In this document: positions 46,348 through 63,900 of the stretch, in pieces
Layout: every line of letters begins with the position of its first letter
Numbering within the stretch: position 1 is the stretch's first letter
Source of the DNA: Cenarchaeum sp.
GTDB taxonomy: Archaea > Thermoproteota > Nitrososphaeria > Nitrososphaerales > Nitrosopumilaceae
Assembly (NCBI GenBank): GCA_965242695.1
Contig: CBDESU010000002.1
Location: 1,216,001-1,280,000 of the forward strand
Length of the DNA stretch: 64,000 bases
Direction: 5' to 3'
The notes under the pieces: generated by a model
Database searches by the model: none
The model's input: the letters and a program-made list of their open reading frames with translations, nothing else
What the model was told of the DNA's origin: nothing
Program-made: the position numbers and the translations under genes

Positions 46348-46424
46348 TGGTGCAGTCGCCGGGATTCGAACCCGGGTCACCAACTTGGCAAGCTGGAATA
46401 ATAACCAAACTATACTACGACTGC
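46348..46424 (-). tRNA. tRNA-Gly (GCC), CCA encoded
   Basis: Reverse complement GCAGTCGTAGTATAGTTTGGTTATTATTCCAGCTTGCCAAGTTGGTGACCCGGGTTCGAATCCCGGCGACTGCACCA. Confidence 0.95.
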
Positions 46425-47943: not shown

Positions 47944-48423
47944 TCATATGGAAAAGTCCACGGGCATCCAAAAACCGGCGCGCCTGAGATCTTTGACGAT
48001 CTCGCTGGCCTCGCTCCTGTCTATGATCCCCCTATCTCTGAGGAGTACGATCAGGCCGAGCAGCCCAGTGAAAGGTATGCCCCGCCTCTTGGCCGTCGAT
48101 CGGGCTCGCCGATCGTCAAGTATGCAGTACGACTTGCCCTGCGGGCGCACCCTTTCGTACAGCGCGAGCGTGTCGGATTCGCCGGGGCCGAGGGCAGGGG
48201 AGTCTTTCTTCAACGCCTCTATATCTGCAGCAGGACTGGCCGCGAAAACGCGGATCTTGCCCTGGCGCACCATGCCTTCTACCTCTTCCCTGACCTCCTT
48301 TCCGCGCAGCTCGCCCAGGACGTGCCCCGCGATGGCCAGAGTGTGCCCCAGTTTGAGGATGCTGTCGATCAGATCGGGGCGGCCAAGCTCGGATATGATG
48401 CCGATCAGCGCCGACGTGTCCAT
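47944..48423 (-). CDS. PIN-domain (DUF3368-like) putative toxin
   Basis: DTSALI, GPGESDTLAL, ILDDRRAR..A..GI.FTGLLG, LRRAGFW. Confidence 0.85.
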   Translation of the reverse strand: MDTSALIGIISELGRPDLIDSILKLGHTLAIAGHVLGELRGKEVREEVEGMVRQGKIRVFAASPAADIEALKKDSPALGPGESDTLALYERVRPQGKSYCILDDRRARSTAKRRGIPFTGLLGLIVLLRDRGIIDRSEASEIVKDLRRAGFWMPVDFSI

Positions 48424-48438
48424 TATCTTCAGGCGCGG

Positions 48439-49026
48439 TCACCGTGCCACCTGTACGCGCATCCTGCCGGCCATCTCCCAGACATCCTCGACGGGGCGAT
48501 CTAGGATCTCGGCAGCGCGCCCGAGCGAAATATTTCCCTTCACTAGCATCGACACGGCGTGCCGCTCCTTGCTGGACATTATCCGGTCGTACGTCGGCGA
48601 CCTTGTTGCCATGTCGGGGTATGTAGAGTACACGTACGCCAAGAGCTCGTCGGCCGTCATGCTGTTGAACACATCCTTGTACTCATCGATCCTGGCAAGC
48701 GTGCGGCGGTCTTCGCCGCCGGCGATCCTGCCGGCGACCTCGCCGCCTAGCTGCGTGATGGAGACATCCTCGCCGTCGGTGCGCAGAATCCCCGCATCCT
48801 CTAGGCGCGCGGCTTCCTCCTCGACAATGTCGCTGTGCGGGCCATGGCTGCCGGCAACGTACCCGCACGGGCCGCACTCCCAGCCCTTATTCTCGGTCAG
48901 CATGAACACTATCTTTTGCAGCTTTGTCCTGCCCCTGATCGGCTCGCATCCGTTGGAGGCGGCGAGCAGGACGACGAGCCTGCGCAGCGGATCGCTCGTC
49001 AAGCGCATCCCTTCGGCCGCATCCAT
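48439..49026 (-). CDS. Putative antitoxin: SocA/DUF4065/YwgA-like wHTH fused to UPF0175
   Basis: GRTKLQKIVF..HGPHS, ELLAYVYSTYP; C-terminal KGNISLGRAAEILD. Confidence 0.75.
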   Translation of the reverse strand: MDAAEGMRLTSDPLRRLVVLLAASNGCEPIRGRTKLQKIVFMLTENKGWECGPCGYVAGSHGPHSDIVEEEAARLEDAGILRTDGEDVSITQLGGEVAGRIAGGEDRRTLARIDEYKDVFNSMTADELLAYVYSTYPDMATRSPTYDRIMSSKERHAVSMLVKGNISLGRAAEILDRPVEDVWEMAGRMRVQVAR

Positions 49027-52623: not shown

Positions 52624-53093
52624 GCGGCGGCCGGCGCCGCGTCACGCTGCCCCATGCTTCTGTCTCCTTTGCCTCCTTTGCCTTGCGCTCCAAAGCGGCG
52701 GCCGGCGCCGCGTCACGCTGCCCCATGCTTCTGTCTCCTTTGCCTCCTTTGCCTTGCGCTCCAAAGCGGCGGCCGGCGCCGCGTCACGCTGCCCCATGCT
52801 TCTGTCTCCTTTGCCTCCTTTGCCTTGCGCTCCAAAGCGGCGGCCGGCGCCGCGTCACGCTGCCCCATGCTTCTGTCTCCTTTGCCTCCTTTGCCTTGCG
52901 CTCCAAAGCGGCGGCCGGCGCCGCGTCACGCTGCCCCATGCTTCTGTCTCCTTTGCCTCCTTTGCCTCCTTTGCCTTGCGCTCCAAAGCGGCGGCCGGCG
53001 CCGCGTCACGCTACCCCATGCTTCTGTCTCCTTTGCCTCCTTTGCCTCCTTTGGCGCTCCAAAGCGGCGGCCGGCGCCGCGTCACGCTACCCC
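52624..53093. repeat. Intergenic 71-bp minisatellite (6 full units + partial)
   Basis: Unit starts 52624, 52695, 52766, 52837, 52908, 52988, 53064; internal 9-mer CCTCCTTTG varies in copy number. Confidence 0.92.
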
Positions 53094-54249: not shown

Positions 54250-55248
54250 TCACCTGCGCTGCGCATGCCCTACCATCTCCGATATCCTTCCAAACCCGTC
54301 GTCCTCCATGTACGATGCCAGCCCCGCGTTGATGCGCGAGAATACACCCGTCCCGCCGGGGCCAGCCGCGGCGCTGCCGACCTGCACGGCGCGGGCGCCG
54401 GCGAGTATGAACTCGGCCGCATCCTCCCACGAGCCCACGCCCCCGCAGCCGACCACGGGGATGCTGACGGCGCCGGCAAGCTCGTAGACGCACCTTACGG
54501 CGACGGGGCGTATGGGCGCCCCCGACAGGCCCCCGATGCGGTTGCTCAGGACGGGCCTCTTCGCATGCACGTCGATCCTCATGGCCCTCACTGTGTTTAT
54601 CGCGGTTATGGCCGAGGCGCCGGCATCGGCGGCCGCCTCGGCCGTCCGTATGAAGTGGGTCGTGCCCAGCCCGACCTTTGCCATAACGGGCGCGTCCGTG
54701 GCGCCTGCCGCCGCGGCGACTATCTTCCTTACGAGGCCCAGGTCGTCGCCGACCTCCAGCCCGACCCTTGCGACGTGGGGGCACGAGAGGTTTAGCTCGT
54801 ACGCGGCGATGCCGCCTCCGCCGCGCCCGCACCTGTCCTCGAACGCGCCGATCATCCGCACAAAGTCCGACTCTGCCGAGCCGACGAGGCTCGCGACGAC
54901 GGGAGCGCCGATCGGCTCCCCCGTCCTGCTGCCCGCGCTATCGCCGGCCTTCGACTCGCCGCCCCCGCACGCGGCGATCATGTCTGCCATGCCGGCGGCG
55001 CCGGGGTTGGACAGGCCTACCGCGTTGAGCCAGCCCCCGTCGATGCCGGCCCCGACGACGGTGGGATTGGCGTAGCCGTCCCACGGCTCGGTACTGACGG
55101 ACTTTGTCACGACGGCGCCGGCGCCCTCGGCGGCCAGCCGCCTGAACACGTCGGTCGAGATTCCGAGTATGCCGGATGCGAGCATCGCGGGGGCGGCCAT
55201 CCTGAACGACCCGCACACGTCGACTGCCAAGCTCGGCGCCACGGCCAT
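54250..55248 (-). CDS. pyrD: Dihydroorotate dehydrogenase, family 1B catalytic subunit
   Basis: LASGILG, NAVGLSNPG, ELNLSCPH, GGLSG, VQVGSA. Confidence 0.95.
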   Translation of the reverse strand: MAVAPSLAVDVCGSFRMAAPAMLASGILGISTDVFRRLAAEGAGAVVTKSVSTEPWDGYANPTVVGAGIDGGWLNAVGLSNPGAAGMADMIAACGGGESKAGDSAGSRTGEPIGAPVVASLVGSAESDFVRMIGAFEDRCGRGGGGIAAYELNLSCPHVARVGLEVGDDLGLVRKIVAAAAGATDAPVMAKVGLGTTHFIRTAEAAADAGASAITAINTVRAMRIDVHAKRPVLSNRIGGLSGAPIRPVAVRCVYELAGAVSIPVVGCGGVGSWEDAAEFILAGARAVQVGSAAAGPGGTGVFSRINAGLASYMEDDGFGRISEMVGHAQRR

Positions 55249-55371
55249 GGCGGCGCATCCTGGTTAATAATGGTTGGCGGCCGGCGCCGGGTCGGTTCGC
55301 ACTGCCGTCCTCCCGTGCGGTAGCCGCACCCCTGCCCTGCTCGGGGCACTGCTTGCCGCAGGTATTCGCTC

Positions 55372-55856
55372 AGCCGGCAGGATTTGTCCCGAGCGGCGCC
55401 CTTAATACCGCCCCGCCAACCTTCTCGGCGATGGCGGCCAGGCAGGAGGTTCTAGGCAGGAAAAAGGCGGGGAATAAGGCGCACCGCGCCGATCCGACCG
55501 TGGCCGAGTCGGCCGTGGTTGGCATAGCCGCCGCCGACGCGGCCGCAATGCCCGCGGGATGGAAGCCTAGCCGGTTCTTCGGGGCGTGGAAAAAGGAGGT
55601 AGCCGAGACGGCGGGGATGGACCTTGTCTGGAGCAACATGGGGCACTACGCTGGGTTTACGCCCGACTCGCTGGTGGAGGCCGTTGAATCGATCCTGCGC
55701 ACAACCGTAATGCGTGCCTACAAGTCGGACGACATTCACGAGGTAATTCTCGCATCGGACAACGACGGCGGCGCCATGCGGGCGTATGCTACCGCATTTG
55801 TGGACGCGTTTTGGAGGGACTTTTGGACCGAGTACCGCAAGAAGTACCCCGAGCCG
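55372..55856 (+). repeat. Diverged direct repeat copy 1 (promoter + gene X)
   Basis: AGCCGGCAGGATTTG..TTAATACCGCCC..ATGGCGGCCAGGCAGG homologous to 57998-58482. Confidence 0.85.
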
Positions 55857-55892
55857 AGAATCTCTTTGCGCCGCATCGGAGCCGTACCATAA
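55431..55892 (+). CDS. Hypothetical protein, gene X paralog A
   Basis: ATG after TTAATA box; close paralog at 58057 with many synonymous differences. Confidence 0.75.
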   Translation: MAARQEVLGRKKAGNKAHRADPTVAESAVVGIAAADAAAMPAGWKPSRFFGAWKKEVAETAGMDLVWSNMGHYAGFTPDSLVEAVESILRTTVMRAYKSDDIHEVILASDNDGGAMRAYATAFVDAFWRDFWTEYRKKYPEPRISLRRIGAVP

Positions 55893-56005
55893 CCGAACAA
55901 CTTCGTGCGATCATGAGGCACAAGATGCGGATCGTTTGAGGGTCTGTACTGACATTGATCCGTCGCATGTACAAACCCGCATGCCTTGCATATTCCCTGC
56001 GCGGC

Positions 56006-57184
56006 CTAGGGCTGAGTAGCGTAGCCGACGCTGGCTGCCGCAAGCTGGGATATCACTTCCCTTTCCGCCTCTCGAAAGCCATCTTGCCCCTTTTTCCAAA
56101 AGCCCTCCCATGCGCTGTTCAGTATGGCGGAGATGCTTGTGGCACCTGCACCTTTTTCCTCTACTGTGGCATCGACGTAGCCGCGGAGGCCCGTCTGCCG
56201 CAGCGCACCCATGATGGCAGCGGTGATTTCATTGAGGATGTGGGCCGGAAAAGCATACTCGTACGCGGGCGTAGGCGCGCTGTACACGGGCGGCATTGCG
56301 TCCCACAACTCCCTGATCCTGGCCGCATCGCGCGCATTCCCTAGCATAACTAACCCCGCATCAAGCATGCGCATCCTGGCGTCGTCGGACGGGTGCGTCT
56401 GATTACCGGGCATGTCAAGCCTGTAAATTTCTGGCGAGGATTTGGACACTAGGTGCAAGTTGGCCCATGCATACGCAGGCCCAGCCGCGAACAAAGCAAA
56501 GAGGTCGCAAAAGGCCTCTTCCAACCACTCTCCCTTCCACTTAAGCATCATCCACTCTATGTCGGTTCGCACCGGCGGGGGCGTGGTATGCCGGCGCTTG
56601 GTGATCTCCAGCCCCCTGTAGTAGTCGTCGATGGCCCTCGTAGCCCTGTTTATTCCTGCCATGATTGGAGGTAAGCTTGCGGCCATGGCGTGGTCGTATA
56701 AATGGTGGCCTAGCTCATGATAAAAATCCGGCATGTGTAGCAGGAACCCTGTTTCGGACAGAGGAACAAATATGGTATTCATTTGCATATAGGTAAAGTA
56801 GTGCTCATTCGACGTGCATGATACCGCGGGGCACGGAAACTCCAGACCTATCTCGCGATGCATCAAGAAAAGAACATGGTTTAAAAGCCCAGATTCTTCG
56901 CTTTGGCAGTGCAGTGGCGGCATGCCGTACCCCTCGACCGCGCCTATGTTTCTGTCGCAAATTTTGATGATCTTGAGAGCCAGAGTGGCGCCGCCCTCGC
57001 CAACGCTATCAAGCGTGGTGGACGTAGCGGCGAGCAGTTGTCTCTGCTGGGCTAGGCGGCTCCTGCACTCGGATGCCAGATTCTCAAGGTTGGGATGCAC
57101 TTGAGTGTCCGGTATCATGCATGCCAGCGATTGTGCACGGTTTGCTTGCTCAGAGATCAGCCGCTTTAGGTATGGTACGATCAT
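56006..57184 (-). CDS. HExxH zinc metallopeptidase-like protein (Lit/M48-like motif set)
   Basis: FYHELGHHL, WLEEAFCDLFA..GPAY, THPSDDARM; ATG overlaps upstream stop (ATGA); lower GC. Confidence 0.75.
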   Translation of the reverse strand: MIVPYLKRLISEQANRAQSLACMIPDTQVHPNLENLASECRSRLAQQRQLLAATSTTLDSVGEGGATLALKIIKICDRNIGAVEGYGMPPLHCQSEESGLLNHVLFLMHREIGLEFPCPAVSCTSNEHYFTYMQMNTIFVPLSETGFLLHMPDFYHELGHHLYDHAMAASLPPIMAGINRATRAIDDYYRGLEITKRRHTTPPPVRTDIEWMMLKWKGEWLEEAFCDLFALFAAGPAYAWANLHLVSKSSPEIYRLDMPGNQTHPSDDARMRMLDAGLVMLGNARDAARIRELWDAMPPVYSAPTPAYEYAFPAHILNEITAAIMGALRQTGLRGYVDATVEEKGAGATSISAILNSAWEGFWKKGQDGFREAEREVISQLAAASVGYATQP

Positions 57185-57585
57185 TTCCTGCGAATCTCCC
57201 TGTACAGGCAGCCACACACGTAGTCGAGGGCGTCGGATACGTCGTTGAGCGCCGCCATGTCTTCATCTGAGAGGAACACGCCGTCGCCCTTTTCTAGCCT
57301 TGCAGTGACCGACAGCAAGTCTTCCCTGACGCGCGGCCAGTTGTCGTGGTGGCGGGCATGCAGGAATTTTGACATCTTCTCGCCGTTGATCCCCAAATTG
57401 TAGTGGTTTATGCCCTTGAAGTACAGGCAGAGCGGGGCAAGGATGTCTAGGATGCTCTTGGTCTCGTCTGGCTGCGGCTCCCTTCGTCCTTCGCGTGTCC
57501 TGAGCGACTCGAGCACTAGGACATACGGCGTGAGCAGCTCCGAGGCGCGGTAGAGCCTAGTGGAGATCACGCTCAATCCGCTCAC
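57181..57585 (-). CDS. 134-aa helical partner protein, translationally coupled to the peptidase
   Basis: GGAGGGTGA SD before GTG; ATGA overlap with next gene. Confidence 0.7.
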   Translation of the reverse strand: MSGLSVISTRLYRASELLTPYVLVLESLRTREGRREPQPDETKSILDILAPLCLYFKGINHYNLGINGEKMSKFLHARHHDNWPRVREDLLSVTARLEKGDGVFLSDEDMAALNDVSDALDYVCGCLYREIRRK

Positions 57586-57997
57586 TCGGACTCACCCTCC
57601 ATCCATGATGTACCGCACACGTCCTGCTTCGCCACCGCATCTGCCCGCACGCCGCATCTTATAATGTTTAACCTGCGACCGGCGGGCGTTTGGACCTACG
57701 GGACGACTAGGCGGGCGTGGTAGGCTCCGCACGGCTGGGCGACGGCGACGGCGACGGCGACGGCGGGCGTAGTGCCTCACTGCCGCCGCCCCTGTGCGCC
57801 AGGCATGGTTAGAGGCGCGCCTGCCCGTGCCAGCTTTTTCATGGGCACGCCCGCATGTAATCACGTGCCAGCATGTGCCCCTCCTCTTACTCCGGCCGCC
57901 CGTAAGAAGTGGAATGCTACCGCCTCATCTTGGCTCGACGCAGTGACGTCTCCCTCTGCCCCCGCGCGCCCTACAGTGCAGCAACCGGGATGCATTT

Positions 57998-58482
57998 AGC
58001 CGGCAGGATTTGCCCCGAGCGCCGCCTTTAATACCGCCCTGCCGACCTTCTCGGCGATGGCGGCCAGGCAGGCGGTTCTCAGCAGGAAAGAGGGGGAGAA
58101 GAAGAGGCGGCGCGCGTATCCCACCGTGGTCGAGTCGGCCGTGGTTGGCATAGCCGCCGCCGACGCGGCCGCAATGCCCGCGGAATGGAAGCCAAGCCGG
58201 TTCTTCGGGGCGTGGAAAAAAGAGGTCGGCAAGACGGCTGGCATGAACCTTGTCTGGAGCAACATGGGGCACTACGCGGGCTTTACGCCCGACTCGCTGG
58301 TGGAGGCCGTCGACTTGATCCTGCGCATAACAGCAATCCGTACCTACAAGTCAGACGACATACACGAGGTGATTCTTGCATCGGACAACGACGGCAGCGC
58401 CATGCGAGCGTACGCGACCGCGTTCGTGGACGCATTCTGGAGGGATTTCTGGACGGAATACCGCGAGAAATACCCGGAGCCC
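57998..58482 (+). repeat. Diverged direct repeat copy 2 (promoter + gene X)
   Basis: Homologous to 55372-55856. Confidence 0.85.
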
Positions 58483-58533
58483 GGGATGGCGGCGGGGGCT
58501 GTAGCCGGCCTCGCTATGCGCCTGGCCCGGTGA
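58057..58533 (+). CDS. Hypothetical protein, gene X paralog B
   Basis: WKPSRFFGAWKKEV, WSNMGHYAGFTPDSLVEAV, YKSDDIHEVILASDND, FWRDFWTEY shared with paralog A. Confidence 0.75.
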   Translation: MAARQAVLSRKEGEKKRRRAYPTVVESAVVGIAAADAAAMPAEWKPSRFFGAWKKEVGKTAGMNLVWSNMGHYAGFTPDSLVEAVDLILRITAIRTYKSDDIHEVILASDNDGSAMRAYATAFVDAFWRDFWTEYREKYPEPGMAAGAVAGLAMRLAR

Positions 58534-59366
58534 CCTTGTACCTCCTCCTCAATTCCTTGGTCACAACACGATCGATACCGGCGTCCTGCATCACAACAAA
58601 TTCCGTCCCTGGCGGGATCGACGTACCGTCGGGCACCCTTATCTCCGACTCGGCGGCATGCACTGCCTCCTTCGGATCGTCGATTCTTTCATCGCTTTCC
58701 CGCATGCGCCGGGGCAAGGTGGTATACCATACGCAGCGTATGCTGGTGTGGATAATGTTGCCTATGGGCACTTGAATCTTGATTTTGCGCCCCCCGAACC
58801 ACAATTCGGGATTGACTGTGAGTGCCTTGAAGCCGCACCGCGTCCCGTCCTCCTCGATCCTGCTCTCGAACGTCCCACTCGTGTAGCTCTCGAGCTCAGG
58901 CGGGTCGATCCACCGGTATGCGTGATCCGAGCCGAGGGCCGTCCCGCAGAGCCAGGCACTGAACGCGCACATCGTCTCCTCCGAGTCTATGATCCTGCGG
59001 TATCCCGCTCGATCCTCCACGAGCGCATCTAGAAACAGCCGGTCGGACTCGGCCCTGTCTTTTTCGCATCTGGGCAGCCTCGTATCTCCCGAACACTTCG
59101 CTGCTCCCAAAGTATTTTTCGTCGACTACGCCCTCGTATTTCTGAACGGTCTGCCCTACATCTTCTGCTGCCGACAGTACTCCCTGCATGGAAAGCGAGT
59201 CAAACGTGGCAATCTTTTTGCGCACGCCGCAGATGTCGATCGAGTGGCCCGGCGCTATCCTAGTCGCGCTGGCGGCGCCGCCGAAGCCTCTGCGCCCCGG
59301 CCCCTCGCGCTGCGCTGCGCCCCACCCGCCTTCGGGAGCCGACCATACGGCTGCCGTGTTCGCCAT
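58514..59366 (-). pseudogene. ADP-ribosyltransferase-fold-like protein, apparently frameshifted at an A5 tract (59060-59064)
   Basis: ATG 59366 ~25 nt after TTAAATA; removing one A joins ..QMRK to DRAESDRLF..; AYRW / FKALT / ESEIRV motifs. Confidence 0.5.
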
Positions 59367-59548
59367 AGCCGCGTCAATCTGAGCAGTTCTATTTAACCGT
59401 TGTATAAGGTACTAGGACATTACGCAAGATGCCCGCTGTGCAGCCGTGCAGTGGCCTGCCCCCGCGCCGAGCGCCCGCCGCGAAGCATGCGGACGGGTGC
59501 CGAGGCGCCGACCGGATCCGCCCCTCGCCGGGCCGCCGCCCGCGGCCG

Positions 59549-60766
59549 CTACTCGTCTGGCACCTTGTACCACTTGCGCGGCTGGAAGAACCGCTTGACG
59601 AGCAGGGCCGTGCCGGCAAGGTACACGAATATGCCGATCGGCTCGATCCAGTTGCGGCCCGACTCGCCGGCCGTTATGCCGAGCGCGGGCTCTACGACGA
59701 ACAGGAACAGCGCGCCGACCATGAGCGGGGCCATGGCGACAAAGAACAGCATGAGCGTGACAGAGTCCCTGAACGCCCTTGCCAGGTCCCTGTACGAGCC
59801 GTGCGGCCTCTTCCACCTGCCGGGGCCGACCCACACCTGCATGCCGCTCGCGTACCAGTGGACCATCCCCTGCAGGAACATGGCGCCAATGATGTTGCCG
59901 AGCGTGACGGGCACCAGGTTCTTGAACCACGCCTCGCCCCAGGTGTACTCGCCGCCCGCCCACAGGCCGGCCGAGAGCGCAAAGTGGTTTACGATGCTGT
60001 GCTCGAACCCGATCGCAAAGAATATCGAGGCCGGTATCCCGATGAGCAGCACCTTGCCGACTATATCCTTGGTGCGGTACGCGCCCCACACGCCCATTGC
60101 GATCAGCCAGTTGGCCAGTATGGCCCTGTAGAAGAGCTCGTCCCACGTGTGGCCGCTTACCTTTTTCTCGCCGATGCCGGCCATGACTTCCATGAGCGGC
60201 GCGCCGAACGAGCCGGCCTGCGAGGCCCCCACGATGATGAGCCACCCTACGACGAACCCGCCTACCCAGTGGCCCGAGTGGGTGATCGACCACTCCCAGA
60301 GCACCTCCCTCCACCGCGCCTGCCGCGTCATCAGCGACACGCTCGCAGTCAGGTAGTCGCCCGTCACGAGGTTCGAGCCGTACAGTATGACGAGGACCAG
60401 CGCCGACACGCCGAACATCATAAAGCCGAGGAACTTGCCTAGGCCCCCCGACAGGTCGTCCGTGACGGCGAACATGACGGCCCACGCCAGGAACGCGCCG
60501 AACGCCAGGTATGCGGTCGCCTGCCAGCCGAGCAGTATGCCCTGCGCGGGGTTTACCTTTGACTTTGAGACGCCCATCGCGCTGAGGGTGCGGATGGTGT
60601 CGGGCAGGTTGAACAGGCCCGTGTTGATGCGCGGCGGGCCCTCGCCGTCGGGGCCCTCGCCGGGGGAGGCCGACCGGCTCTCGCCGGGCCCCGCCTTTAC
60701 GTCGTCCTTTTCGGTCGTCACGCCGGTCCGGCCCTCGGCCGGCCCGGTCGCGTCCCCGTCCGCCAC
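59549..60766 (-). CDS. Formate/nitrite transporter (FNT family) with C-terminal TM extension
   Basis: GSNLVTGD, RAILANWLIAMGVW, FFAIGFEHSIVN, NLVPVTLGNIIG; GTG 60766 after TTTTATTA. Confidence 0.88.
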   Translation of the reverse strand: MADGDATGPAEGRTGVTTEKDDVKAGPGESRSASPGEGPDGEGPPRINTGLFNLPDTIRTLSAMGVSKSKVNPAQGILLGWQATAYLAFGAFLAWAVMFAVTDDLSGGLGKFLGFMMFGVSALVLVILYGSNLVTGDYLTASVSLMTRQARWREVLWEWSITHSGHWVGGFVVGWLIIVGASQAGSFGAPLMEVMAGIGEKKVSGHTWDELFYRAILANWLIAMGVWGAYRTKDIVGKVLLIGIPASIFFAIGFEHSIVNHFALSAGLWAGGEYTWGEAWFKNLVPVTLGNIIGAMFLQGMVHWYASGMQVWVGPGRWKRPHGSYRDLARAFRDSVTLMLFFVAMAPLMVGALFLFVVEPALGITAGESGRNWIEPIGIFVYLAGTALLVKRFFQPRKWYKVPDE

Positions 60767-60921
60767 GCCGCGCGCCCCTGCATGCACGTAATAAAACCGA
60801 TTGCGGCCATGCCGGGGCCGCGCCACACTGCCCCCGGGGGAGGGGGCAGTGCCATCCACTGTAGCCGCGTTGCCGCCTGCCACGGATTCAAACTTAATAT
60901 CCGCGGCCGCGGCCGCGCCGC

Positions 60922-63900
60922 GTGTCGGAGACAACCACCGCGGCGCGCCGGGGCGGCGGCCGTGCCCGGCGCCCCGCGGCGGTCGGCGCCGCGGCGGTAG
61001 CGATAGCGGCCGCCGCCATAGTGGCGTCGGGCATCCCCGACTCGCCGTTCCACGCCGCGGCCCAGTCGCCCGACACCACGCCGCCGTCCCTCCAGGGCGC
61101 CACGCAGGCGCTCAACCTGAACGCCGTGCCGCCGACGCTGACTATATCGTTCGACGAGGACGTCCTTGCCGCCCCCTTGGGCGCCGTACCGGGCGCGAAC
61201 ATGTCGCTCGTCGAGATCGTCGGCGTGTCCGGCCGCCCTGTAGTCGGGCTGGCCGGTGCCTCCGCCGCCCACGCAGCCGGGTCCCAGTCGACGCTGGTCG
61301 CAAACCTCACGGCGTCGCAGCATGCGGCCGCCTCGGCGGCGCACCGCGTCGCCGCTCCGCTCACCCTCACGGTGCGCTACGGCGCGGTCTACGACGCGTC
61401 GGGCAACGCGTTTGGCGGCCGGTCCGAGGCCGGCCTAGACGTGGTGCCCGACACGACGGCCCCCTCGGCCGCCGGCTCGGCCTTTGTACTGAACCTCACG
61501 GACGGGACGCTCCGCATGCACTTTGACGAGCCGATCGACGCGGCCGCTGCCGACCTGCGCGGCGTGACAGTCCTCGTGCAGACGGCGCCCGGCGAGATCG
61601 CCGCGACGGGCATGGGCGGCGCGTCGGCCATGCAGGGCGAGTCCGGCGAGCTCGTCATATCGCTATCCGCCGAACAGCGCCTACGCCTTGTCGGCCTGCG
61701 CCAGACCGGCGCCGGCTCGGCCGCCGACGCGGTGACCGTGACCGTGACGCACACCGCGATACCAGACTTTGCCGGGAACCACTGGTTGGGCACGCTGTTC
61801 GGATCTGCCCGGCCCGCCGTCATAGACGATGCGTCGGGGCCGTCCCTGCTGCCGCCTCCGATCCGCCCTCTGCTGAACCTGCGCGCCGGCTCGCTTGCGC
61901 TGTACTTTGACGAGGCGGTCAACCGAACGTCGGCGCGCCCCGGGCTGATCAACGTCACGCATGCGGGGCATCCGGAATCCGGACTCGGCGCCACGACGGT
62001 GGGCCTGGGAGGCGCGCATGTAGCCTCGCACGCCGACTCTGACGTGCTGGTGATCGCCCTGACGGAGGGGCAGGCGGGGTCGCTCAGGGCCCTGGCCGCG
62101 GCGGCCGCCGGCGAGGGCGGCATGCGCGCGGGGGCCCAGAACTGGACGGTCTCGCTGGCAAACGGCTCCGTGCGCGACATGGCTGGAAACCCGTCGGCCC
62201 CCGCCGCCGCAGCCCCCGCTGCGGCGGCCCACGCGGCCCCTGCGCGGCACGCGTGCATGGCCGCCGGCGGGGGGGACGGCCCGTGCCGGTACGGCATACT
62301 CGGGTCGTACGGCGAGGCGGCCGCGTGGAGCGGACAGGCGATTGCGGTCTCGGACGACGGCAGCCGCTCGTACGCCGCGTACGGCCCGCCGCCCGGCTCG
62401 CGCGCGGCGCGCATCGATGCCGTCGGACTCGCGCAGACCGGGGCCGGCGTCCGCCCCGTGCTCGCATCCGCCGAGTTCGAGCCGCCGGCATCCGGCGTCT
62501 CGTCGTCGGTGCATGCAATCGCGCTAGACGGGGCCGCGGGCGCGCCGCTAGCGGCGGTGCGGGAGGCGCCGTACGGCGGCGGAGGCGGCGGGGCGGGGCG
62601 CGCCTCGTCCTACCTGGCCCCCCTGCACCCTGCAACACTTGCAGAGGTGCAGCGCATTCCGCTCTCGTACGTCTCGCACAACGGGACCGCCGCGCCCGGC
62701 GATGCGCCCGCCTCTGTCGCAGCCGATGCGCCGCGCCGCCTCGTGCTTGCCGCCGTCTCGGATGCGCCCGCTAGTGCGGCCTCGCCGTACCGCACCCGCG
62801 GGGCCGTCCTGTCTGCCGACGTGGACGAGCTGCGGGCCCATGCGATGTACGCAGCGGCCGCCCCGGACAACTCGTCGGGGTACTACCATCCGTACCACGC
62901 CTGGCAGCCTGCGGCCGCGGCCGTAAACGAGACCTCGTTTGCCGCGGCCGGGAATGCGCCGGCTGTCGCGTACGTGGCCGGAGCGGCACTCGACGCCGCG
63001 GCCGCCGCATCGGGACTGGCATATCCGAACTCGTACGGAATCCACACGGTCGTATTCGGAAGCTCGTCGGCGTTCTCGCCAAACTACACGTCCGTCCACT
63101 CGCTGTCCCTGGCCGCACCACACGCGTCCCCGCACCCCGATGCGGCCTCGCTCGCAGTGGTATCGCTGGCCCTTGACGGCAACCCCGGCGGCGCCCTGTA
63201 CGCCCTGTACGCCAACGGCACCCTGGCGGCGCACGCGCTCGCGCCGGGCGCGCCGGGCGGCCCGGCGGCCGGATACGCGGTGCCCGCGCCGGGCATCGCA
63301 GTGGCGCACGGACTTGCCGTCCCGCGCCCGGGGATATCGATCGACGCAGGACGCGGCCTGCTGTACGCCGCGCCGACCGATCTCTCGTCCGTATTGGTGT
63401 ACGACCTGCGCGCCGCAGGCGGGCCCGCCCTGGCCGCCGAGGTGCCTGTTCCATATCCAGTCTCGGCCCTGGCGGCATCTGCCTCTGACGGGACCGTGCA
63501 CGTCCTGGGCGGCATGCCGGGCGGGCCGGACGCGCCGCCGGGCGCGGCCGCGTACATCGTGGGCCCCGGAGCGGCCCCGCTATCGCTGGACGGCCCGCCG
63601 TCGGCCGACCTGCGCGCCGGCATTCTGACGCTCCCGCTCGACAGGAGGGCCGATGCCGCATCGATCGACCCCTCGGGCATGGTCCTGTGGGGGTCCGGCG
63701 GCGGGTCGTCCGAGCCGGTGCGGCTCGCCGGCGCGTCCGTCCTGTCGTCGGGGTACACGACCGCGCCGGCAATCCTCCTGACCGAGGGGCAGAGGCGCGC
63801 CGCCGCGGCCGCGCACGCCTGGGACGGGCCGCTGCTCGCCAACCTGTCCGAGGGCGCGGTGCAGGGAGTGGTCGGCGCGCCGCTCGCCGCCGCCTCGTCG

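Follow-up and report, generated by a model that had tools for sequence, protein, structure and literature searches.

We analyzed a 64,000-nt stretch of the genome of Cenarchaeum sp. (C2:1216001-1280000, where C1 and C2 are contig 1 and contig 2 of this genome; the whole stretch is referred to below as the window, and bare numbers are positions in it). Between pyrD and the gene for a formate/nitrite transporter (FNT), the window contains two copies of a small gene that we call X (X-A and X-B), a gene E with an ADP-ribosyltransferase (ART)-like fold, and a gene pair encoding a small helical protein and a protein with an HExxH motif. On balance, we lean towards the reading that two unrelated modules are interleaved here: an X-E module resembling a toxin-antidote pair, accompanied by orphan X copies, and beside it an inserted effector pair that has been orphaned of its Argonaute. 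The genes of the interval and its flanks, with their open reading frames (ORFs), are as follows.

54250-55248 (-): pyrD, left flank (Pfam PF01180, 4e-49); synteny with relatives ends here
55431-55892, ORF from 55353 (+): X-A, 153 amino acids (aa), small and all-helical, with a conserved core WKPSRFF..WK and a tail after KYPEP unlike the X-B tail
56006-57184, ORF to 57217 (-): HExxH gene, 392 aa from Met-12, a putative zinc hydrolase without a known family
57181-57585 (-): helical partner, 134 aa, first gene of the putative helical-HExxH operon
58057-58533 (+): X-B, 158 aa, with its last 20 nt overlapping the 3′ end of E on the opposite strand
58514-59366 (-): E, the ART-fold gene in a pseudogene copy, with N-part ORF 58896-59366 and C-part ORF 58514-59110
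59549-60934 (-): FNT, right flank (Pfam PF01226, 2e-55)

E genes are paired with X genes

The genome encodes 9 X paralogs and 4 E paralogs. We observe that 4/4 E paralogs converge on an X, with 3′ ends that either overlap by 11-20 nt or are separated by a gap of 13-43 nt. Because every E converges on an X, we regard X-E as a fixed two-gene module rather than X as an anchor for swappable cargo. Other than E, the neighbors of X are further X copies, zinc-ribbon genes, or housekeeping genes. Examples of these arrangements include an X-X-E array at C1:312 kb, an array of X, two zinc-ribbon genes, X, X, and E at C2:1053-1057 kb, and an isolated X at C1:692 kb whose neighbor carries a phosphoribosyltransferase-like motif. 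The GC content at third codon positions (GC3) in the X-E system is below that of the host genes.

Outside this genome, we found 122 X and 34 E cluster representatives, all of them unnamed and nearly all from ENA or Logan assemblies. In at least 9 cases, X and E clusters occur on contigs of identical size (1919, 4527, 17102, 126030, 29614, 2669, 40025, 15325, and 13701 nt), and the 1919-nt contig leaves room for little else. X-E therefore shows the conserved adjacency of type II toxin-antitoxin systems; it is not a co-transcribed operon, as X and E converge and each has its own TATA-like box.

The zinc-ribbon genes belong to a family of CxxC zinc-ribbon repeat proteins that is hugely expanded in this genome, with copies at L022:4874-6421 (C2:1053874-1055421) and at more than 30 places on C1, for example at 808-813 kb, 845-846 kb, and 872-881 kb. 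Two copies lie between X paralogs and others lie near copies of the helical gene; Pfam gives only weak zinc-finger matches.

The E protein has an ART-type fold, and the window copy is decayed

An AlphaFold model of E, built from 35 sequences, has a predicted local distance difference test (pLDDT) score of 86.7 and consists of a helical N-terminal domain and an alpha/beta C-terminal domain. In a structure search independent of Foldseek, residues 136-275 match yeast Tpt1 (7yw4) with a Z of 9.1 and a root-mean-square deviation (rmsd) of 3.3 over 113 of 120 residues. The same residues match DarT in four entries, with Z 5.6-6.4 and rmsd 3.7-4.5 over 115-126 residues. Further structural matches are the following.

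TreTu: Z 5.5
CopC: Z 5.0
Scabin: Z about 4.7

Nearly all of the 50 rows of the re-examined Foldseek list are members of the ART superfamily. As judged from the predicted model, the C-terminal domain of E belongs to the ART/NAD (nicotinamide adenine dinucleotide)-binding split beta-sheet fold, which is a statement of fold membership only. The initial annotation had called this gene ART-like, and this stands at the level of the fold (Tpt1 at Z 9.1, DarT), but the gene itself is longer than annotated and is frameshifted. Nothing was found for E in NCBIfam, PADLOC, or PHROGs.

Invariant residues in the 35 E sequences include R143, S160, R168, R169, E233, and R235. The conserved elements are the Arg of YRWID (R143), an A/S-x-T strand (A-L-T 173-175), an Arg-Arg-Gly-Phe strand, and E231-x-E233 in E-x-E-V-R-V-P-D-G-T. 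Going by these residues, the family looks like it has an intact, putative ART active site.

The copy of E in the window is a frameshifted gene of ~280 codons, with the N-part (59061-59330) and the C-part (58517-59080) in different frames and the frame break at a short homopolymer near 59052-59058. It also encodes a Cys at a family-invariant Arg (TRCGFKAL vs RRGFKAL). Contigs of sequencing runs X4, X5, and X6, from three further studies, carry the same frame break without a gap. In run X7, which comes from a more diverged strain with 69 differences, the extra base is absent at that place, and other samples contain full-length E members of the same 90% cluster. An intact E paralog of this genome is located at C1:313287-314111. 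In the window, E is a dead pseudogene, and X-A and X-B are therefore both orphans.

X is an old duplicated gene kept under selection

A repeat search identified X-A and X-B as a 300-nt direct repeat that is 88% identical with a spacing of 2626. The DNA homology begins ~60-70 nt before the ATG and ends at the KYPEP codons, and includes an upstream block in which 60/70 nt are identical. The two proteins share 120/142 residues (85%) and are mutually closest paralogs, compared with ≤58% identity to the remaining X proteins. The synonymous divergence (dS) of 0.41 indicates that the duplication is old, and the ratio of nonsynonymous to synonymous divergence (dN/dS) of 0.19 indicates that both copies are kept under selection. 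Past the conserved core, the tails of X proteins differ according to the neighboring gene, and the two tail types are found again in other samples. By eye, metagenome X homologs such as P0003 to P0005 look mosaic between paralog types.

A HMMER scan of 1.84 billion representatives yielded 18 X matches at an E-value ≤0.001, of which 9 are the X family proper. The other 9 are marginal (seven were aligned), and most of these fall into a remote sister family that is equally unannotated. This sister family (P0281-P0289; 105-153 aa) is colinear with X, has the motif FLEAWKK ... DAMEEYA ... AAE.WKR, and has no Pfam family; one marginal match, in a cadherin-repeat protein of 1294 aa, is likely to be spurious. 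A search of 200 genomes of the order found no X, and an alignment including the remote relatives gave one marginal match only, with a stop codon, in 400 genomes of the phylum. Likewise, X was not found in database genome contigs or viral contigs, and JGI metagenome contigs gave a single 19-residue match only.

X has no family match in Pfam, NCBIfam, PADLOC, or PHROGs. Its predicted model is a five-helix bundle (pLDDT 81.8), for which we found no informative match in PDB (Foldseek), in BFVD, or in a wide structure search (best Z 6.0). Two candidate relationships of X were rejected. The Atlas lead to ADP-ribosylglycohydrolases (0.87) is below the useful range and no such protein is present among the rows of the structure search, and comparison with the helical partner and the HExxH protein by hhalign gave probabilities of 0.2 and 1.4, showing no relation.

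X promoters share a TATA box and mostly also a palindrome

The two X promoters of the window have the following features.

55345-55408 (+): X-A promoter block, with a distal palindrome GGCACTGCTTGCC at 55345-55357, a proximal copy with one mismatch at ~55376-55388, and a TATA-like TTAATA at 55402-55407
58002-58034 (+): X-B promoter block, with a palindrome GGCAGGATTTGCC at 58002-58014 and a TATA-like TTTAATAC at 58027-58034

A TTTAATAC-type TATA box is present in 9/9 X promoters and ends ~24-27 nt before the ATG (~24 nt for X-A). Because of this spacing, the X mRNAs are probably leaderless. The exact palindrome GGCA-N5-TGCC occurs at 9 sites upstream of 7/9 X genes, at -84..-87 and -55/-56, and 214 times in the whole 3.9 Mb. 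Only two pairs of this palindrome with a 31-nt spacing occur genome-wide, both of them at X promoters. Since the palindromes are kept between X subfamilies with only ~45% protein identity, this conservation points to a putative operator.

We also observed an exact GGCA-N5-TGCC 48 nt upstream of a TTTAATAC box at an Lrp/AsnC-like regulator gene (C1:624589-625200; family assigned by eye). Such a regulator could be a candidate binder of the X operators, and the site could also be there by chance.

The helical-HExxH pair is elsewhere the tail of an Argonaute operon

The start of the HExxH gene is most likely Met-12, with its ATG and the helical stop codon sharing the sequence ATGA (57181-57184), and this overlap marks the two genes as a predicted translationally coupled operon. 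The HExxH gene encodes an HELGH motif at ~56705-56719. Across 40 family sequences, H156, E157, H160, E223, and D227 are invariant, as is an ExxFCDLFA block. Both genes are intact in the window and the invariant residues are kept. The 40 HExxH members gave no Pfam match and no peptidase family, and the Atlas neighbors are unnamed, with Lit/U49 and M48 as leads at only 0.78-0.79. For the HExxH and helical genes alike, Pfam, NCBIfam, PADLOC, and PHROGs returned no usable match.

To place this pair, we collected 133 homologs of the HExxH family and fetched 80 loci from other genomes (L026-L105). The hosts are wide and patchy, including Nitrososphaerales, Bathyarchaeia, Archaeoglobus, Chloroflexota, Acidobacteriota, Planctomycetota, Bacteroidota, Cyanobacteria, and others. 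The helical gene is directly upstream of HExxH in 72/80 loci, an Argonaute-like gene of ~800 aa lies further upstream in 77/80, and both are present in 71/80. When eight of the ~800-aa genes were compared with Piwi, one scored above the curated cut-off and three more below it, and the one in L026 matches an Argonaute of the PDB over its full length (7r8f, which we take to be PliAgo; 5e-112). Upstream of the Argonaute lies a PD-(D/E)XK, Cas4-like gene in 12/12 loci tested. Thus a four-gene operon of PD-(D/E)XK nuclease, Argonaute, helical protein (~120 aa), and HExxH protein (~385 aa) is found across many phyla, for example at L026:1299-6158.

No match to Piwi or Argonaute was found in the present genome, although control genomes gave such matches. 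In the window, no Argonaute adjoins the pair, and its upstream neighbor is X-B, on the other strand. We found 5 full HExxH genes in the genome, all with a helical gene in front, as well as at least 10 copies of the helical gene; only 1/5 full helical-HExxH modules, the window copy, abuts an X. Downstream of many helical copies lie stubs of 55-80 codons from the HExxH N-terminus, among them a tandem run at C1:1103026-1105892 and further places at C1:874393-875343, C1:808890-809287, and C2:1507488-1507892. The helical-HExxH pair both multiplies and decays in this Argonaute-less genome.

A literature search for Argonaute together with HExxH or metalloprotease found no relevant paper. An HExxH or helical partner of Argonaute is not named in the text passages searched of PMC10620215, PMC6299218, PMC9360449, and PMC12094033.

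The interval in its genome and in other samples

The host genome is 3.89 Mb in two contigs with a GC content of 67-68%; same-family relatives have genomes of mostly 1.4-1.8 Mb. The host is a sponge-associated ammonia-oxidizing archaeon: its genome encodes archaeal AmoA, and the stretch under study is present in sponge metagenome runs from five studies. No RNA run is among the listed runs that contain the stretch. The arrangement also occurs outside this assembly, as contigs of three studies bridge the 3′ end of X-A, the HExxH gene, and the helical gene, and those of two studies bridge X-B and E.

Most of the layout described in the initial annotation was confirmed. The gene order between pyrD and FNT is as claimed, based on ORF positions and on Pfam for the flanks. 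The claimed ~60-bp promoter block shared by the X copies holds (60/70 nt), and the stop of X homology at KYPEP is found in the DNA alignment. Both X copies converge on the 3′ ends of their neighbors, with X-B overlapping E by 20 nt and X-A ending 113 nt from the HExxH gene. The cargo is also lower in GC (0.52-0.66 over 55600-59400 vs 0.68-0.74 in the flanks), and no recombinase family is present among the ORFs scanned at 44.4-64 kb. We found no attachment-type repeat beyond X itself. The broader claim of a conflict locus holds in part: the lower GC, the multi-copy genes, the lineage-restricted or patchy families, and the decaying gene agree with it, but we read the interval as two unrelated modules rather than as one array.

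The pyrD-pyrK-radical SAM order is syntenic in two relatives, one of the same genus and one of the same family, and the other side of pyrD differs. Synteny with both relatives breaks at the 5′ side of pyrD (55249-55430), and the genes at this side in a relative correspond to a region at ~2.12-2.13 Mb of contig 1.

Several other features were observed in the window and beyond. The sole tRNA at 40-64 kb is at 46348. Between the radical SAM and S30e ribosomal protein genes, a 71-nt tandem repeat (52624-53093) has 6.4 copies that are 94% matching. The stretch at 47944-49026 contains a PIN-like gene (DUF3368, 1e-6) and, adjacent on the same strand, an unassigned gene of 195 aa; the two may be another toxin-antitoxin pair. 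C1:2200991-2208386 and C2:3160-10555 have identical ORF lists at a constant offset, including a helical gene with an HExxH stub; this is either the end of contig 1 overlapping the start of contig 2 or a long shared repeat.

Proposed function and alternative explanations

In the mechanism that we propose, E would be a NAD-dependent modifying enzyme that is toxic when free, and by analogy with Tpt1/KptA and DarT its target would probably be nucleic acid. X, made from its own TATA-box promoter, would be the antidote or regulator of E, acting through a predicted binding to E, through overlapping transcription of the two converging genes at their shared 3′ ends, or in both ways. A shared immunity or regulatory partner, as the initial annotation offered for X, remains the best reading of this gene. 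The surplus of X copies (9 X vs 4 E) would represent orphan antidotes kept by selection. The helical-HExxH pair, elsewhere the tail of the nuclease-Argonaute-helical-HExxH operon, would here have lost its Argonaute and multiplied. Because X-A and X-B are closest paralogs and tandem X copies are present at two other loci, the simplest reading of the origin is that a tandem X-X-E array came first and that a helical-HExxH operon was then inserted into the spacer between the X copies.

A number of observations weigh against this proposal. X-A abuts the HExxH gene, and this junction, with the X-A type of tail, recurs in other samples (P0004, P0005), so X and HExxH may be functionally linked. The Foldseek E-values for E are weak (best 0.1) and a single structural match is above Z 8, so our claim for E is limited to fold membership. 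No Pfam family for ART, DarT, or Tpt1 was found for E up to an E-value of 1 in the 35 members, and a sequence-profile search of the PDB gave no match. The R / A-x-T / ExE residues are what we take to be the ART catalytic set, placed by eye from the motifs of cholera-type and other ARTs. X has no recognizable fold or DNA-binding domain, so its role is read from context alone. Classical type II toxin-antitoxin pairs are not built convergently with separate promoters. Lastly, the palindromes derive in part from the common ancestry of the paralogs, so that the site counts overstate their independence, and for the longer contigs an equal size of the X and E contigs is no proof of adjacency.

X-E could instead be no conflict system at all, with E a Tpt1/KptA-like enzyme of ordinary RNA or DNA metabolism that modifies or repairs nucleic-acid ends, and X serving as the cofactor of E or as a transcription regulator. 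Tpt1 is the best structural match of E (Z 9.1), several Tpt1 alignments span both lobes (model residues 60-258, 126-141 aligned), the many invariant arginines of E fit phosphate binding, and an operator-like palindrome is present at X promoters. However, the genes are multi-copy in unequal numbers (9 X vs 4 E) with a GC3 lower than that of host genes, one E copy is pseudogenized, X was not found in the 200 genomes of the order and gave one marginal match in the 400 of the phylum, and none of the 35 E members has a Pfam Tpt1 match; we therefore regard an ordinary metabolic role as unlikely. The lower GC of the interval, the break in synteny, the frameshifted E, and the numerous truncated stubs of HExxH at other places in the genome could also be taken to mean that the entire interval is the decaying remains of a mobile element or virus integrated by pyrD, with X, E, and the HExxH pair as passengers without present function. 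This is very unlikely given that purifying selection acts on X-A and X-B (dN/dS 0.19), that the HExxH and helical genes of the window are intact with their invariant residues kept, that no integrase, capsid, or replication gene and no viral-contig match was found, and that the same arrangement is present in 4 studies.

The initial annotation proposed a swappable cassette array anchored by X. In this model, X is a recombination or regulatory anchor behind which defense effectors are exchanged, and each X serves the effector that it faces, HExxH included. X-A does face HExxH and X-B does face E, the X tails vary with the neighbor in types that both recur in other samples, the mosaic appearance by eye of P0003 to P0005 suggests recombination among X copies, and the interval lies at the synteny break beside pyrD. 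However, an X adjoins 4/4 E genes but only 1/5 HExxH modules, and the remaining X neighbors are X, zinc-ribbon, or housekeeping genes. The cargo proved to be the same in 4 sponge metagenome runs of 4 studies as far as the contigs reach, with no contig that skips the cassette. An integron-like or recombinase-driven cassette is not what we find, with no recombinase among the ORFs scanned, no attachment-type repeat beyond X, and no differing cargo in the 4 runs. In addition, the X-A/X-B split is old (dS 0.41), the HExxH pair has a separate history, at the end of Argonaute operons, and X and E clusters are on contigs of identical size in at least 9 cases. Altogether, this makes X as an exchange anchor quite unlikely, and the swappable array is not supported. 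It is highly improbable, in our view, that the X proteins are operator-controlled gatekeepers over several toxic effectors, both E and the Argonaute-orphaned HExxH faced by X-A, with X having replaced Argonaute as the control of HExxH in a modular, lineage-specific defense architecture. We thus still lean towards an X-E toxin-antidote-like module and a separate, inserted helical-HExxH pair.

Comparison with known systems

The statement of the initial annotation that no named system has this layout stands for X-E, and a PADLOC scan recognized nothing. X-E is similar to DarTG, which consists of the DNA ADP-ribosyltransferase DarT and the macrodomain antitoxin DarG, in that it too combines an ART-fold enzyme with a dedicated neighbor. 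DarT is among the best fold matches of E, and both systems are multi-copy and patchy, as defense genes often are. However, E lacks sequence similarity to DarT, with PADLOC and Pfam silent, and has an extra N-terminal helical domain. X is small and helical with no match to a macrodomain, and X and E converge with separate promoters whereas DarTG is an operon.

The RNA 2′-phosphotransferase Tpt1/KptA is the best structural match of E, and both have two lobes with an ART-fold NAD lobe. In contrast to Tpt1, E has no PF01885 match and a helical N-lobe. Tpt1 has a conserved Arg-His-Arg-Arg tetrad, which is not evident among the invariant residues of E. E is also multi-copy and strain-variable, unlike a housekeeping enzyme.

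A third comparison is with polymorphic ART toxins and their immunity proteins (Rhs TreTu-TriTu, TreX-TriX, Tre1-Tri1), to which E is similar in its ART fold (Z 4.2-5.5). Surplus orphan partner genes in tandem beside the toxin gene are a feature of immunity arrays and are seen for X-E as well. Unlike these toxins, E stands alone, with no Rhs, PAAR, or secretion N-terminus and no adjacent secretion genes, and X is unlike the known immunity folds. If X-E works as we propose, it would add an archaeal ADP-ribosyltransferase toxin family that is unrecognized by sequence models, together with a small partner of a new kind and an unusual layout in which the genes converge and have separate promoters. 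To our knowledge, the conflict systems of ammonia-oxidizing sponge symbionts have been little studied.

The helical-HExxH pair can be compared with the nuclease-prokaryotic Argonaute (pAgo) operons that act in DNA-guided RNA targeting. A pAgo preceded by a Cas4-related nuclease is described there in operons of constant composition, and the extra genes named in that text are a helix-turn-helix regulator or a sigma factor and not an HExxH protein (Lisitskaya et al. 2022, PMC9360449). The foreign homologs of the window pair likewise follow an Argonaute that is preceded by a nuclease. The present genome differs in having no Argonaute, with the pair alone in 5 full copies. The helical and HExxH genes are thus a constant tail of nuclease-Argonaute operons in Bacteria and Archaea that can survive and multiply without Argonaute. 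This points to an effector arm of Argonaute systems, of which we found no description in searchable papers, and this by-product of our analysis may matter as much as the X-E module.

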